Part shown: positions 32,878-41,992 of the stretch, piece after piece | Layout: every line of letters starts with the position of its first letter | How positions within the stretch are numbered: position 1 is the first letter of the stretch | Assembly (NCBI RefSeq): GCF_009931435.1 | Contig: NZ_CP043414.1 | Reading direction: 5' to 3' (one strand) | Length of the DNA stretch: 64,000 bases | DNA from: Escherichia coli | GTDB lineage: Bacteria > Pseudomonadota > Gammaproteobacteria > Enterobacterales > Enterobacteriaceae | The notes under the pieces: generated by a model | Told to the model about the DNA's origin: nothing | Database searches by the model: none | Seen by the model: only the letters and a program-made list of their open reading frames with translations | Translations under genes and position numbers: made by a program

Positions 32878-34050
32878 TTAGCCAGCGTTAGCTTTTACGA
32901 TATCGTCGATCAGTTTATTGACAGGTGCCAGGCTGATTTCACGCGCGGTACTTACCGCAACCGGTGTGGAACGTACTTTATTTGCCAGTACCTGACCGTC
33001 ACGGTTAGTGGTATTGACGCTCACCAGCGTGGATAAACCGATACGCAGCGGGTATTGCTCCAGCTGTTTCTGGTCCAGTTCAATACGAACAGGCAGACGC
33101 TGAACGACTTTGATCCAGTTACCGGTAGCATTTTGCGCCGGAAGCAGTGAGAACGCGCTACCTGTGCCCATATCCAGACCAACCACTTTACCGGTGTATT
33201 TCACATCATCGCCGTAAATATCGGTGGTGATAGTGACCGGCTGACCGATACGCATATTGGCAATCTGCGTCTCTTTAAAGTTGGCATCCACCCACATATT
33301 GGTGGCTGGAACGACCGCCATCAGCGGCGTCGTTGGGCTAATTTGTGCCCCAGGCTGTACCGCGCGGCGGGAGACATAACCGGTCATCGGACTGACAATA
33401 CGGGTACGCTCCAGCGCCAGCCAGGCGTTACGTACTTCGGTGGCAGCCTGTTGCACGGCAGGCTGATCTTCCAGTTTAGTCCCCAGAATCATCGCCTGAT
33501 TGGCATTGTATTGTTGAATAGCGACGTCCAGTTGCGCCTGGGCACTGGTGACGGCGTCGCGGGCGTGTTGCAGCTCTTCGCGACCAATCAGGTTGGCATT
33601 GCCCAGCGGCACACGGCGGTTGTAGTCGCTTTGTGCTTTCGCGAGGGCGATTTTCTGCACCTCAATATTCGCCTGCAACTGCTTGCTGTTAATCATCAGC
33701 TGGTGGGTTTGGCGAACGCTGGAAGCCAGTGCCGTTTTGGCTTTTTCAAACGCCTGGCGAGCATCTGTCGGGTCGAGAGTGACCAGAACATCGCCTTCTT
33801 TTACAAAATCGGTGTTATCGGCCCAGACTTTCGTCACGCTGCCAGACACCTGAGACATAATTTGAATCTGATTCCCTGCCACGTATGCGTCATCGGTTTC
33901 TTCGAAATGACGCAGTACCAAAAACCAATAAATCCCTATCGCTACGGCAATAATTATAAAGAGCAAGGTGAGAAGGAGGAGCAGACGCTTACGTTTGCCG
34001 CTCTTCTTTACCGGTTGCTGCGGGGTTTGAGTCTCCGCATTTGCGCTCAT
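32878..34050 (-). CDS. emrA: Multidrug efflux periplasmic adaptor (membrane fusion protein)
   Basis: Track ORF from GTG at 34062; ATG at 34050 gives MSANAETQTPQQPVKKSGKRKR..., 390 aa. Confidence 0.93.
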   Translation of the reverse strand: MSANAETQTPQQPVKKSGKRKRLLLLLTLLFIIIAVAIGIYWFLVLRHFEETDDAYVAGNQIQIMSQVSGSVTKVWADNTDFVKEGDVLVTLDPTDARQAFEKAKTALASSVRQTHQLMINSKQLQANIEVQKIALAKAQSDYNRRVPLGNANLIGREELQHARDAVTSAQAQLDVAIQQYNANQAMILGTKLEDQPAVQQAATEVRNAWLALERTRIVSPMTGYVSRRAVQPGAQISPTTPLMAVVPATNMWVDANFKETQIANMRIGQPVTITTDIYGDDVKYTGKVVGLDMGTGSAFSLLPAQNATGNWIKVVQRLPVRIELDQKQLEQYPLRIGLSTLVSVNTTNRDGQVLANKVRSTPVAVSTAREISLAPVNKLIDDIVKANAG

Positions 34051-34176
34051 ATTGTTCTCCACGATCTTCTTAACTCATCGGCTGAGCCGACCTGCTTGCC
34101 AAAAAGGCCAGCATGTTGCGATGCTGGCCAGTCATTTTTTCTTTTATAAATCTGGATTTTTGAGCGAGATGACGCG

Positions 34177-34707
34177 TTAGCTCATCGCTTCGAGAACCAC
34201 ACCGTCTTGTTCCATCTGGTCGAGACGGGAGAGCAATTTGCGGGTGATTTGCTCGAGCTGATCTTTTTCTGTTGTGCTGAGCGCGGACCAGAGTTGATGC
34301 AGGCAATTATGCTGCGGTGGTAAAACCTCGCGCAAAAACTCGTGACCTTTTTCCGTTAATTGCAGATGCAGGCAGCGGCGATCGTTATCGCTTTCACGAC
34401 GTTCGATCCAACCGCGTTTTTCCAGTTCATCGGCAATACGCGTCGCGTTGGTACGGGATGATCCAAGAGCACAACTCAATTCAGAAGGCTGAATACTGTG
34501 GTTTTCCTGAGACTCCAGCGTAATCAACGCCATAAACAACGTCTCGTTAATCCCCTGAGCCTTCAGCATTTTATTGCGGTTCTCCAGCAGCTTGCTTTGC
34601 ATATGCATGCAAAGACGGGTCAGAAGGATCTCCTGATAAGGAAAATCTTCGTGGCGGCTGGCGCGAAATTTTAGCATTTGTTCAATGGGCGTAAACGAAC
34701 TATCCAT
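34177..34707 (-). CDS. mprA: MarR-family transcriptional repressor of emrAB
   Basis: 176-aa ORF with winged-HTH, directly upstream of emrA. Confidence 0.92.
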
Positions 34708-34797
34708 TTGGGTATGACCTCATTAATTTCAGCCGATATAGTAACGACAGTGACAAATAAAGTAAATGTATTGTTTTAGAAAAATGATTCTTGTGGG

Positions 34798-35133
34798 TTA
34801 TATAATCGCCATCACTTTCCAGGCGAGCCCATAGGCCAGCGCACTAAGCAGTGTTGGGATGATAATGCTGCGTGTTTTATAGAAACTGGCACCCAGTACC
34901 GCGAAGCCGACCAGAGTGGGCACGAAACGGCGTGTATCGTGCATCACTTCTGGTGCGGTAGAGACAACCAGCAGAGCGCATATCGAGGCGATGCCAATGG
35001 TGTCGAGCAAAATACCTACCGCGCCACGTTTGGTTGGGCGGGCATTACCCACACGCAGGCGCAGCGGCAAATAGCGGAAGCAATAATTCGCCGCGCCAAC
35101 CAGTAACCCAAGCAGCAGAACCTCATAGCTCAT
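34798..35133 (-). CDS. ygaH: AzlD-like small membrane subunit of L-valine exporter
   Basis: 111-aa hydrophobic ORF overlapping ygaZ stop; synteny. Confidence 0.88.
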
Positions 35134-35860
35134 CGGGCGCTCCTTGCCAGAATGCCTGGATTAACGCAGTGAGGCAGCCACAGACAATGCCTGCCAGAAT
35201 GGCGACGGGAATAGAAAATAGCGTTATGCCTGCAAGGGCACCAACTAACGCTGCGGTAACGCAAAGAGATTGTTTGCGCTGGAAAGAGGCGAGCAGGAAA
35301 CTCATAAAGAGTGCCGGAAGCATAAAACCTAATGCTGCTTCAACGGCGGGATATCCTTGCAGCAAGCCGCTGCCGGAGAATGCCCCTATTACCGTACCAA
35401 ATACCCACGATGACCATGAACTGAAGGCAATGCCGATCATCCAGTTCTCGCTCCAGCGGCGATTATTGCGTACCAGTTTTGCGGTTGCGGCGGCAAAAAC
35501 CTCATCCGTCAGGCCAAACGCCCACAGGGCAGTTTTCGATTTTTGCAGACGCTGAATAATACGGCTACGCAGTGACGGGCCATACAAAACATGGCGAACA
35601 TCCATTGCCATGACGGTCAGTGCAGCAACCCACAAACTACTCCCGGCTGCCAGCATCGCGGTAATGACGAACTGGCTCGCGCCTGCATAAATGATGCAGG
35701 AGAAAAAAACGCTTTCGAGAGGAGAGAATCCCAGACGGGTCGCATTCAGACCGAACGCAAAGGCCACCGGAATATAACTAATAACAATCGGTAAACTGTC
35801 TTTGCATCCTTCCATGAAGGTCGCCGAACCAGGAGCAGGCTGTGGAGTAGGGCTTTCCAT
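35123..35860 (-). CDS. ygaZ: AzlC-family membrane subunit of L-valine exporter
   Basis: 245-aa polytopic ORF; synteny with ygaH and mprA. Confidence 0.88.
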
Positions 35861-35983
35861 AGAGTGTACGCTTAACGATTGTTAATATTATAAATAGACT
35901 GAATGAATATCTTAACCTTATCAGACTGATGGGCTTCTTAACACCCTTATAAGTGTAAAGCCACGAAAACGGTTGCTGATTGC

Positions 35984-37168
35984 TTAAATTGCGGCTTCCT
36001 GACGATGAAAACCTCGCCACCAGACCAGTAAGTTAACCAGGGCAATCGTCGCGCCAGCCAGACAAACGCCAGCCCAACCGCCATGTTGCCAGGCTGAGGC
36101 TGAAATTAGCGAACCGGCGGCACCGCCAATAAAGTAGCTGGTCATGTAACCTGCAGTCAGGCGATTACGCGCATCAGGGTGTATTCGATAAATTACCGTC
36201 TGGTTAGTGATATGCACGCCCTGCACGGTGAGATCCAGCACCAGGATGCCGATAATCAAGGCCAGTACGGAAGTGTGACCAAACCAGATCGCCAGCCATG
36301 AAAGTAACAGCAGCAGCAGACCGAAAGTTGTGGTGTGGTGCGATTTGCCCTTATCGGCAAAACCGCCCGCCGGACGAGCGCCCAACGCTCCGGCAGCTCC
36401 CGCGAGTCCAAACAGACCAATTACGCCATCGCTGTAATTAAAAGGCGGAGCGGCGAGCAAAAAGGCCATTGAGGTCCAGAGAATGCTGAAGTTGGCAAAG
36501 GTCAGGCAGCCCAGCAACGCGCGGGTGCGCAGAATTTTATCGCTGATAAACATGCTGAAAACGGAACCAAGCAACTGTGGGTAGTTGAGGTGGGTTTCTG
36601 ATTTCATTTGTGGCAGACCACGCCATAATGCCAGCGCCATCAGTGCCATTAACACCGAGGCAACCCAAAAGACGGTGCGCCAGCCGCCGAGGTTTGCCAG
36701 CAACCCGGCAACGGTTCGTGCCAGCAAGATCCCCAACAGCAGCCCGCTCATAATGGTGCCGACCACTTTGCCGCGTTTGTCCGGTGAAGCCAGCGTCGCT
36801 GCCAGCGGAACCAGAATTTGTGCCACGACCGAGAATAAACCGGTTAATGCCGTACCGAGGATCATCATCGCCAGCGACTGACTGCTGGCGGTAATCAACA
36901 TACCGCCCGCTGCCAGTAAGGTCATCGAGACAATCAGGCGGCGGCGTTCAAACACATCACCGAGGGGAACAAGAAACAGCAGACCTGCGGCATAGCCCAA
37001 CTGCGCGGCGGTAACAATAAAGCCCGCCGAACTGGCGGAAAGGGAAAAGTTACGCGCGATGGTGTCGAGTAATGGCTGGGCGTAATAGTTACTGGCTACC
37101 GCCAGACCGGTGGCGATAGACATCAGCACGATCAGTGCCGGGCTAAGCTCATGATTAGGTTTAGTCAT
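35984..37168 (-). CDS. ygaY: MFS transporter (intact; recalled as a pseudogene in K-12)
   Basis: 394-aa uninterrupted 12-TM-like ORF between ygaZ and proX. Confidence 0.8.
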   Translation of the reverse strand: MTKPNHELSPALIVLMSIATGLAVASNYYAQPLLDTIARNFSLSASSAGFIVTAAQLGYAAGLLFLVPLGDVFERRRLIVSMTLLAAGGMLITASSQSLAMMILGTALTGLFSVVAQILVPLAATLASPDKRGKVVGTIMSGLLLGILLARTVAGLLANLGGWRTVFWVASVLMALMALALWRGLPQMKSETHLNYPQLLGSVFSMFISDKILRTRALLGCLTFANFSILWTSMAFLLAAPPFNYSDGVIGLFGLAGAAGALGARPAGGFADKGKSHHTTTFGLLLLLLSWLAIWFGHTSVLALIIGILVLDLTVQGVHITNQTVIYRIHPDARNRLTAGYMTSYFIGGAAGSLISASAWQHGGWAGVCLAGATIALVNLLVWWRGFHRQEAAI

Positions 37169-37267
37169 TATTTTTGTTCATCAGGTGATGATTAAGCTGG
37201 AAATCAATAATAGCGGATGTTGATGAATATGGGATGAAAGATAGATTGTTGAAATGTGCGGTGTGGT

Positions 37268-37350
37268 TTGTAGGCATGATAAGACGCGGCCGCATCGCAT
37301 CAGGCATTGTGTACAGAGTGGCGGATGAGGCAAAAGCGCCTTATCCGCCC
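37268..37350. repeat. REP-like palindromic element between ygaY and proX
   Basis: gtaggcatgataagacgcggccgcatcgcatcaggc ... gcggatgaggcaaaagcgccttatccgc. Confidence 0.45.
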
Positions 37351-37359
37351 GAATAAAAA

Positions 37360-38352
37360 TTACTTCTGCGCTGCCAGCGCCTCATTCACCCAGCCATCGA
37401 ACTGCTGCTGGTGGGCTTTGATCCAGCCATCAACGTGTCCCTGAATATCGCCTTCTGAGGCTTTGCCGTCATGCATGATGGCGTTCTGGGCGTTAATGTC
37501 TGCCACCGGCAACTGCATAATGGCAAACAGTTTCGCTGCTGCCGGGTTTTTCTCGGCCCAGGCTTTGTTGGCAACGATATGCATGGTACTGACCGGGAAG
37601 CCGTAATTCGCGCCATTCGGCAGTTTGGTATCGGCATTTTTATCGCCCGGCAGTGCGGAGAACGGCACCTGCAACCAGACCACATCTTTCCCCGGTTTCA
37701 GTTCGTTACTCACCCAGTACGGCGTCCAGGTGTAGTAAAACACCGGCTTACCCTCTTTGTAACGACTGATGGTGTCAGCCATCATCGCTGCGTAGTTCCC
37801 CTGATTATGGGTTACGGTATTGGTCAGTCCATACGCGGCAAGCTGGTGGTTGATCGCACCTTCGCAGCCCCAGCCTGGGTTACAGCCGGTTAAATCCGCT
37901 TTACCGTCGCCGTTGGTATCGAACAGTTTGGCGATCTTCGGATCTTTCAGTTGCGCGATGTTGGTGATTTTGTACTGGTCGGCGGTTTTCTTATCGATCA
38001 GGTAACCCTGTGCCGCGCCGTTAACGAATACCCCTTCACGATAAAATTTCTTATCGCCACCGGCAGCTTCGTACATGTTGTCATGCAGCGGCGTCCAGTT
38101 CACGGCGGTGAAGGTTGCATCGCCGGAAGCAAGTGAGGTGTAGCCAACGTTGTAATCCACTTCGCTGGGTTTATTGACGGTATAACCTAATTTCTCCAGT
38201 GCACGACTGACCAGCAGCGTCTGGAAGGTTTCTTCAGTGATGGTGCTCTGAACTGGATTAACAGTAATACCTTTGCCCGGCAGATCGGCAGCAAAAGTTT
38301 GTGTAGAGATAAGCGTGGCAAACGCTGTCGCAAAAAGTACGCTATGTCGCAT
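37360..38352 (-). CDS. proX: Glycine betaine/proline ABC transporter periplasmic binding protein
   Basis: Track ORF to 38394; ATG at 38352 gives [31 protein letters not shown]... (signal peptide), 330 aa. Confidence 0.93.
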
Positions 38353-38409
38353 TGTTATTCCTTTTTTTGGCAGGGTGAAAATGCCCGGCGTCACCGGGCA
38401 AGTGCAGAG

Positions 38410-39474
38410 TTACTTAATGAATGGGCGGGTCAGCAGACCGACAGGGCCAGTGGTGTACCAGCGACGGTTGCCGCGACTGCGTGAGTCGCGCCCAACGGCC
38501 TGCGTCAGGCGGTCGAGGATAATGGCGAGGATCACAATCCCGACGCCGCCAACGGTGGCAAGCCCCATATCCAGACGACCGATACCGCGAAGTACCATCT
38601 GACCCAGCCCGCCGACGGCAATCATCGAGGCGATGACCACCATAGAAAGGGCCAGCATCAGCGTCTGGTTAACGCCCGCCATTATGGTCGGCATCGCCAG
38701 CGGTAACTGAACTTTGAACAGCATTTGACGCGGGCTGGCACCGAATGAGCGCGAGGCTTCAATTAAATCCGCCGGAACCTGATTAATACCAAGAATCGTC
38801 AGACGGATAATCGGCGGCAGAGCAAAGATTATAGTCACCACTACGCCCGGCACGTTGCCGATACCAAACAGCATGACGATTGGCACCAGATAAACAAACG
38901 CTGGCGTGGTCTGCATGGCATCAAGCAGTGGACGAATAATTTTCGCCGCTCGCGGACTTCTCGCCAGCCAGATCCCCAACGGCAAACCTATGACGATACA
39001 GAACAGCAGGGCGGTTAACACCAGCGCCAGGGTAACCATGGCCTGCGACCAGGCACCGATTGCGCCGATGGCAATCAGCGAAACCAGAGTCGCCACGCCC
39101 ATTCCGACCCCGGAAATCTGCCAGGCGATGAGAGCGAAAACGATAATCGCCACCGGCGCGGGCATACCCAGCAGCAATTGCTGGAAACCGTTGAGGATGT
39201 AATCAACCGGAACGCGCACGCCCTGAAAGACGGGACGAAAATGGGTAACGACCCAGTCGATCCCTTCAGTGACCCAACTGTCGAGCGGGATTAGCGTTTT
39301 ATGGAACGGATCGAGAATATTAAAATGCTCGACGTTTGGCGCAGGCGTACTGGTCAGCCAGTCAGCGCCACCGCCGTCAGTCGGTGCAGTCGCCGGTGTA
39401 CCCCAGGCGTCTGCAGATTGTGCAGCACTGTCCGCCGCTGGCGTGGTATCCCACGGATTATTTTGATCAGCCAT
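38410..39474 (-). CDS. proW: Glycine betaine/proline ABC transporter permease
   Basis: 354-aa ORF, 8-nt overlap with proV. Confidence 0.93.
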
Positions 39475-40669
39475 TATTTACCCCCTCACGATCTAAAGCG
39501 CGCAGCAGCATTCCTTTCGAAATGATGCCGACATACTGTTGGTCCTCGTCGACCACGGGCACCGCACAGGGCGCTTGTCCGACATGAGAGAGCAACTCGC
39601 TAAGAGGCGTTTGCGCATCGACTGCTAATGGCGCATCAATCAGCGCCGCATCAAGACCTTGCTGCTGCGTTAACGCGGTTTTAAGCGAATCGATAGACAC
39701 AGCGCCGACAAACTTATTACCGCGTTCGATAACGTAGCCATATTCGCGGTCTTCATCCTGCAATAATTTCAATGCCGAACGTGGGCCGAAGCCAGGGGTT
39801 TTACGAATTAAGCCATTCGGTGTCCGACGGGCAATATCTTTCGCACTGAATACCTGACTAATATCAACGCCACGGAAGAAGGTACGGACATAATCATTCG
39901 CCGGATTATTGAGAATTTCATCCGGTGTGCCAACCTGCACCACTTCACCATTTTGCATAATGGCAATTCGGTCGCCAATACGCATCGCTTCGTCGAGATC
40001 GTGAGAAATAAAGACAATGGTACGTTGATGTTTCGCCTGTAATTTTACCAGCTCATCCTGCATCTCAGTGCGAATTAATGGATCAAGCGCCGAGAAGGCT
40101 TCGTCCATTAATAATATATCCGGATTAATTGCTAATGCGCGGGCTAATCCGACGCGTTGACGCATCCCACCAGAGAGTTCGTCCGGGTAGCTATGGGCAT
40201 AATTTTCCAGCCCGACCTGACGCAGTGCATCAAGGGCTTTTTCCCGGCGTTCTTCGGCATTAATTCCGGCCAATTCCATACCGAATGCAGTATTGTCCAG
40301 CACGGTCATATGCGGCATTAAGGCAAAGGACTGGAAGACCATCGCAATCTTTTTTCTGCGCACCTCACGGAGTTCGGCGTCGGATATTTTGGCAATATCC
40401 ACACCATCAATCAGCACTTGCCCGCGGGTGGGTTCAATCAGGCGATTGAGAAGGCGTACCATTGTGGATTTACCCGAACCGGATAATCCCATGATGACAA
40501 ATATCTCGCCTTCTTCAATGGCCAGACTGGCGTCTTTTACGCCAAGCGATAGCCCGGTTTTTTCCAGAATTTGTTCTTTTGAAAGTCCTTGTTCGATATA
40601 TTTGAACGCTCGCTGAGGATGCTCGCCAAATATTTTATAGAGATTTTTAATTTCTAATTTAATTGCCAT
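39467..40669 (-). CDS. proV: Glycine betaine/proline ABC transporter ATPase (with C-terminal CBS domains)
   Basis: 400-aa ORF with Walker [10 protein letters not shown] and ABC signature LSGGMRQR. Confidence 0.95.
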
Positions 40670-41023
40670 GCAATAGAAAGATTCCTGTTATTTGTTTATG
40701 TCGATACATTACCCAATGGAAATAGTCACTTTTTTCTACCCTAACATACTGAGAATCTGAGGCAACCCCTGATGGCAAATGTGGCATGAATATTGATGCG
40801 AGCAAATCGCCGGAATTTCCCATGATATAAGGGCTGAGAGCAAATCGAGAAAGTTGATATTTTTTGTCATAGATAGCGAAAAAACGCCTGAATATTGTGG
40901 TTTCAGGCGAATAATGCAACAGAGTATCAGTGTAGATCACCACAAAATATTTGCGTGATAAAAAGCTATTTGGCAGGAATTATTTCCCTACTGTGGTTGG
41001 TGATATTTTTGAAAATAACACAC

Positions 41024-41992
<969 letters not shown>

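Follow-up and report, generated by a model that had tools for sequence, protein, structure and literature searches.

What does an intact ygaY mean in an Escherichia coli genome, given that the K-12 copy of this gene is a pseudogene? The stretch of DNA analysed here (64,000 nt, referred to as the window throughout, at its full length) had been given a preliminary description in which a continuous 394-aa hydrophobic ORF was placed between ygaZ and proX. The K-12 copy was described there as a pseudogene, and the intact frame was taken to suggest a functional efflux or uptake system associated with the neighbouring ygaZH and emrAB. The ORF is indeed present, with the coordinates given there. On the minus strand, the ORF listing places a single frame with an ATG start and 394 codons plus stop at 35984-37168, which is the maximal length possible for its frame. 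The coding sequence of 1185 nt has a terminal stop only and is otherwise uninterrupted. The gene and its two immediate neighbours are as follows.

35984-37168, minus strand: ygaY coding sequence, intact, predicted to encode a 394-aa, 12-TM MFS protein of the YnfM family (ORF, Pfam, hydropathy, AF2 model, TM-score, RefSeq orthologues)
35123-35860, minus strand: ygaZ, AzlC-type L-valine exporter subunit, the downstream neighbour (ORF and annotation of orthologous loci)
37360-38352, minus strand: proX, glycine betaine-binding protein, the upstream neighbour (ORF and annotation of orthologous loci); the annotated start is an internal ATG, giving 330 aa

The gene order is emrA-mprA-ygaH-ygaZ-ygaY-proX-proW-proV, all on the minus strand, and is the same in K-12 MG1655 and other E. 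coli; emrA, mprA (that is, mprA/emrR), ygaH, and ygaZ lie downstream of ygaY, and proX, proW, and proV lie upstream. By its position between proX and ygaZ and its high nucleotide identity, the window ORF is the orthologue of E. coli ygaY. Of 5,426 complete E. coli genomes, 5,418 carry this locus, with identities of 95-99.4% and, without exception, the annotation “MFS transporter.” That the ORF is more than a chance open frame is indicated by its match to Pfam MFS_1 (PF07690; 144 bits against a cut-off of 33.4, E=6.8e-42), its 12 hydropathy peaks, the thousands of annotated proteins that are near-identical to it, and the dN/dS values (0-0.12) considered below.

Several lines of evidence bear on whether the ORF encodes a complete transporter. 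In addition to MFS_1, the protein matched Pfam MFS_4 (32.5 bits, cut-off 26.3) over residues 31-381. The 12 peaks of its Kyte-Doolittle profile are arranged 6+6 around a central loop at approximately residues 185-220, and AlphaFold2, supplied with an 89-sequence alignment of diverse homologues, returned an all-helical model with a mean pLDDT of 95.2 and a pTM of 0.93. A sequence-only PDB search gave weak partial matches (GlcP at 4e-8, SotB at approximately 7e-4 to 1e-3), and fold comparison was used in its place. The model superposed over its whole length on SotB at a TM-score of 0.84-0.89, on MdfA at 0.81-0.85, and on NorA at approximately 0.80; for SotB and MdfA, Foldseek gave a probability of 1.00 and an rmsd of 2.4-3.1 Å over approximately 380 columns. 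The similarity to exporters at the level of the MFS fold is generic, and importers such as DgoT and G6PT were also among the fold matches. The textbook MFS motif A, in the TM2-TM3 loop, reads G-x-x-x-D-R/K-x-G-R-R/K. YgaY has a related loop at this place.

36937-36966, minus strand: MFS motif-A-like loop between TM2 and TM3, residues 68-77, P-L-G-D-V-F-E-R-R-R (family alignment)

The spacing of this loop differs from the textbook form in that G stands directly before D and the second G is absent, making it a variant. Within the 89-sequence alignment, D71 is kept in 88 sequences, G70 in 81, and R75 in 75. YgaY is thus modelled as a complete 12-TM MFS transporter with the canonical 6+6 fold. A missing 12-TM MFS fold had been named in advance as one finding that would count against the preliminary description; both the hydropathy profile and the AF2/Foldseek comparison returned that fold.

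K-12 ygaY is a pseudogene, as the preliminary description has it. In MG1655, ygaY (b2681, UniProt P76628) is flagged as a pseudogene of 1178 nt, and in a K-12 derivative it carries the PGAP label “frameshifted.” The pairwise alignment that had been proposed as a means of placing the lesion did so: globally aligned, the window coding sequence and b2681 are separated by one gap of 7 columns and, over 1,178 aligned nt, by 37 substitutions (approximately 97% identity). K-12 lacks CDS nt 255-261, corresponding to window positions 36908-36914 and codons 85-87; these lie within TM3, a short way past the motif-A-like loop.

36908-36914, minus strand: 7 nt absent from K-12, GGCAGCG in the window (alignment with b2681; placement ambiguous by a few nt because of a local repeat)

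The K-12 frame is shifted in TM3, meets a stop three codons on, and ends after 88 codons; past this stop, approximately 300 codons are still open in a different frame. The origin of the lesion can be approached through the B-lineage allele, which of the intact alleles stands nearest to K-12 at ygaY, with 11 synonymous and no nonsynonymous differences between the two. At the deletion site, this allele shows two identical 7-bp units in tandem, GGCGGCA GGCGGCA, and K-12 has one of them left. We saw the perfect repeat in T7 Express (a phylogroup-A/B-lineage allele), where it occupies CDS nt 255-268 and encodes A-A-G-G. The two 7-bp units of the window allele mismatch at three of seven positions, and the units are imperfect in most other alleles as well. 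The K-12 pseudogene state is thus the lineage-specific loss of one 7-bp tandem repeat unit. Given a perfect repeat in the B-lineage allele and a single unit in K-12, replication slippage is the likely mechanism, and the lack of any nonsynonymous change between K-12 and B suggests that the lesion is recent.

Other deletions were observed at the locus, but they are rare. Strain S115, a urine isolate (NZ_CP158441.1; L017, 3286-4451), has an independent 19-bp deletion of ygaY CDS nt 252-270. As it overlaps the place of the 7-bp loss in K-12, the GGC-rich part of TM3 is a candidate for a small deletion hotspot. In PCP06021, a Galapagos seawater isolate (NZ_CM129877.1; L010, 3696-4158), a deletion has taken out the whole of ygaZ together with the greater part of ygaY and the beginning of the ygaH coding sequence (its first codons), and a 159-nt ygaY remnant abuts the shortened ygaH.

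How common the K-12 lesion is across the species was assessed with a 79-nt probe spanning the K-12 junction, counted over approximately 5,405 complete E. coli genomes. The probe matched at 99% or more in 354 genomes. The 60 genomes among the matches listed all appear to be K-12 or laboratory derivatives, including MG1655, DH5alpha, C600, J53, DH1, and NCM3722. The remaining 5,051 genomes had 80-95% identity to the probe, as expected with the seven bases present and a few SNPs. When the undeleted 86-nt junction was used as the query, exactly 86 nt were spanned in 28 of 30 evenly spaced records, and 79 nt were spanned in the K-12 derivative Stbl4. Intact ygaY is therefore ordinary, with approximately 93% of complete E. 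coli genomes being without the K-12 lesion, a figure that rests on identity bands and samples and that tests directly one lesion only, the K-12 7-bp deletion; K-12 is the outlier. Five diverse strains were also sampled (O111:H8, O157 PA8, UPEC 536, T7 Express of the B-lineage, and wild-bird A10), and ygaY was intact in all five. In these and in 2017-02-2CC, the closest relative of the window and likewise intact, a 1185-nt CDS is annotated as “MFS transporter” with no pseudogene flag. The intact gene represents the ancestral, near-universal state, as this distribution and its intactness in other Escherichia species and in Citrobacter indicate. That intact ygaY exists was already known, since RefSeq annotates intact orthologues.

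Conservation extends beyond E. coli. Orthologues of approximately 394 aa occur in Shigella, E. fergusonii (97-98% aa identity), E. marmotae (98%), E. albertii (95-96%), and Citrobacter (93%), the last of which keeps the synteny nrdEF-proVWX-ygaY-ygaZH-mprA-emrAB. Seven intact alleles, together with the K-12 sequence after repair of its frame, gave pairwise dN/dS values (Nei-Gojobori) of 0-0.12, and ygaY is thus under strong purifying selection. With an intact ORF, a complete 12-TM MFS fold, and this pattern of selection, YgaY is very probably functional. The suggestion that the intact copy reflects a functional system is thus borne out as far as the fold and the selection are concerned; the special significance attached to it is not, as intact is the normal state.

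The window allele itself is unexceptional at the protein level. Once the K-12 frame is repaired, the K-12 protein (P76628) and that of the window are identical except for V72M and I394N. Compared with RefSeq “MFS transporter” orthologues (e.g., WP_039021929.1 and WP_000165722.1), which share the synteny, have 394 aa in almost all cases, and are 93-99% identical in aa sequence, the only differences of the window protein are a C-terminal I394 rather than N and V72 rather than M. Residue 72 (codon 72, position 36955) lies in the motif-A-like loop and is M in most E. coli, with V found also in 2017-02-2CC; as to the last residue (35987-35989), every other allele examined has N. The wider family varies at both positions, with L, I, V, or M in column 72. 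The host of the window belongs to a relatively divergent E. coli lineage: when the core genes at 20000-44000 of the window (alaS to nrdE) were compared with 5,426 genomes, the best match over these 24 kb was 98.5%, to goat strain R32_14_1F and 2020CK-00188, with most genomes at approximately 96.6-96.8%. At ygaY itself, only three genomes reach 99% identity or more. We considered whether this divergent lineage makes its ygaY special and rejected the idea, as the protein is only 2-9 residues off the common alleles.

The YgaY protein (P76628) is tabulated as TCDB 2.A.1.36.3, in the YnfM family (PMC5417439), and BLASTP aligned it with K-12 YnfM (b1596) over its full length at 26% identity (409 columns, E=1e-20). 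Both observations place YgaY in the YnfM family, TCDB 2.A.1.36, by homology. It is a large family: at E<=1e-30, clustering at 50% identity leaves 1,144 representatives. No NCBIfam equivalog scored above its cut-off for YgaY, YnfM, or three distant homologues, and a functional name is consequently not transferable to YgaY from these models. Glutarate and other dicarboxylates are exported by YnfM, the founding member of TCDB 2.A.1.36, and BL21(DE3) loses its glutarate export when ynfM is the only gene deleted (PMC12622518). The BL21-derived B strain T7 Express has an intact ygaY. Since the loss of ynfM abolishes export although such a strain has an intact ygaY, the substrate of YgaY is probably not glutarate and, by this analogy, probably differs from that of YnfM.

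The polar residues are in keeping with such a difference. Those conserved in the YgaY subfamily are placed by the model in helices, namely Y28, Q31, and P32 (TM1), Q56 (TM2), R151 (TM5, 88 of 89 sequences), and D312, Q316, H319, N322, and Q323 (TM10), together with R336; all of these family-signature residues are present in the window protein. YgaY and YnfM are both 12-TM MFS proteins that align end to end and have Y28, Q31, P32, D71, R151, and H319 in common. YnfM, however, is without the YgaY polar set, with D312 replaced by S, Q316 by F, N322 by A, Q323 by S, R336 by Q, Q56 by T, and D272 by T. Thus, seven polar positions conserved in the YgaY subfamily differ in YnfM, four of them in TM10, and the residues S, F, A, S, and Q at 312, 316, 322, 323, and 336 point to a binding or coupling site in YgaY that differs from that of YnfM. 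The two genes also differ in their setting, in that ynfM adjoins the putative regulator gene ynfL, whereas ygaY has no adjacent regulator.

We are highly confident that the best explanation of the locus is an ordinary intact chromosomal ygaY encoding a 394-aa, 12-helix MFS secondary transporter of the YnfM family and a putative exporter. YgaY would work by the usual MFS rocker-switch, or alternating access, presumably driven by the proton-motive force. Export, rather than uptake, is suggested by the nearest structures being DHA1 exporters and by the export of glutarate and dicarboxylates by YnfM. The conserved residues R151, D312, Q316, N322, Q323, and R336 are embedded in the membrane, which suggests that the substrate is charged or polar and that there is a site of protonation. 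Our best guess is that YgaY most probably couples the export of a small metabolite, polar or anionic, to H+, a reading drawn from the model and from analogy.

The structural matches also raise the prospect that YgaY is a DHA1-type multidrug efflux pump, a drug:H+ antiporter like MdfA, SotB, or NorA, which we regard as unlikely. DHA1 exporters are its best structural matches, with SotB (6KKK/6KKL), MdfA (4ZOW/6EUQ), and NorA (8TTE) showing the same 12-helix fold at TM-scores of 0.80-0.89 over approximately 380-390 columns. The YnfM family is named, in TCDB, after an acriflavine phenotype (PMC5417439), and YgaY has sub-threshold NCBIfam matches to Cmx/CmrA, Bcr/CflA, EmrD, and TcaB. However, the likeness to these drug exporters is one of fold, with a sequence identity of only 15-18%, and every drug-pump NCBIfam model stays far below its cut-off (Cmx/CmrA 51.8 against 400 bits, Bcr/CflA 50.4 against 303 and 50.2 against 200.9 bits, EmrD 37.5 against 479 bits).

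A more specific version of the exporter reading is that YgaY is a constrained exporter with a specific physiological substrate in wild E. coli, uncharacterised because the K-12 copy is dead. We hold this to be quite improbable. If it were true, the substrate could be, for example, a metabolite of osmotic or branched-chain amino-acid homeostasis, as hinted by the position of the gene between proU and ygaZH, and K-12 would amount to a naturally occurring null mutant with an overlooked phenotype.

The same position invites the view that YgaY is coupled to its neighbours, either as one export or homeostasis module with YgaZH and/or EmrAB or together with the osmoprotectant importer ProVWX. All genes share one strand, and E. 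coli and Citrobacter agree in the order proVWX-ygaY-ygaZH-mprA-emrAB. In K-12, H-NS bridges the ygaY region to the proU downstream regulatory element, and levels of the ygaY transcript increase after hyperosmotic shock (bioRxiv 10.1101/2023.07.10.548347). The bridging is a property of the DNA and not of the protein. The spacers on either side of ygaY contain the following features.

35887-35915, minus strand: ygaZH promoter of the sigma-70 type, TTAAGA-17-TATAAT, between ygaY and ygaZ (10 of 12 consensus positions matched in the scan)
37169-37273, minus strand: AT-rich leader/promoter region of ygaY (promoter scan and direct reading)
37274-37349, no strand assigned: two REP-type palindromes in the proX-ygaY intergenic region, at 37274-37305 and 37320-37349 (inverted repeats)

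The palindromes resemble REP/BIME elements. Around them (37262-37359), the proX-ygaY region is polymorphic, and the alignments of some genomes end at 1401 or 1489 of a 1499-nt probe. Upstream of ygaY, the promoter scan found no strong sigma-70 consensus, giving only the ygaZH promoter and two intragenic chance sites, and direct reading of 37169-37273 revealed no obvious Shine-Dalgarno before the gene. An Rfam scan of 34000-41500 at gathering thresholds returned nothing, which argues against a riboswitch or leader as the explanation of ygaY regulation. The hexamers of the ygaZH promoter are the same as those listed as a constitutive promoter between ygaY and ygaZ (Shimada et al. 2014, PMC3946193), and ygaZH thus has its own experimentally mapped promoter, while proX and ygaY are separated by the REP palindromes. 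Furthermore, homologues of 46-57% identity in other taxa (P0124, P0126, and P0131) stand in unrelated contexts with no AzlCD, EmrAB, or OpuAC neighbours, and no conserved partners were found in their surroundings. K-12 is without YgaY, yet ygaZH, emrAB, and proU are functional there, as their annotated products indicate. Coupling to any of these neighbours therefore seems highly improbable. The functional association with ygaZH and emrAB put forward in the preliminary description comes down to adjacency, and this adjacency, including that to proU, is a conserved enterobacterial arrangement with no sign of functional coupling.

Finally, the least probable reading, to which we give hardly any weight, is that ygaY is dispensable or decaying, a cryptic silenced gene not yet hit in this strain: it has been inactivated independently at least three times (the K-12 7-bp, S115 19-bp, and PCP06021 large deletions), K-12 grows well without it and the locus serves there as a neutral integration site and control, and its translation and transcription signals are weak, but dN/dS is 0-0.12 in all pairwise comparisons, the length is kept at 93% aa identity to Citrobacter, the great majority of complete genomes are without the K-12 lesion, and the family-signature residues are all kept in the window protein.

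The conserved transporter gene that we favour has practical implications, although these are modest. The literature treats K-12 ygaY as a pseudogene, with its deletion used as a neutral control and the locus used as an integration site in W3110, and the K-12 gene has been called “cryptic,” with in-frame stops (bioRxiv 10.1101/2023.07.10.548347). K-12 is not representative at ygaY, which matters little otherwise. In nearly all other E. coli, including the B/BL21 lineage, however, the gene is conserved and under purifying selection, so an insertion at ygaY in non-K-12 hosts would disrupt what is very probably a live transporter gene. YgaY is an orphan MFS transporter, and de-orphanising it needs a non-K-12 strain or a repaired allele. 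We add little to what was known: the lesion is now described exactly, another independent deletion is placed at the same candidate hotspot, and a live-gene caveat applies to non-K-12 hosts.

One further relative was encountered among the homologues. An ENA metagenome contig of 5,428 bp (P0001) has a predicted protein of 596 aa that is 73% identical to YgaY and scores 1090 bits. Full-length YgaY orthologues score 830 bits, and a score above theirs suggests that P0001 is a partial internal duplication or an assembly artefact.
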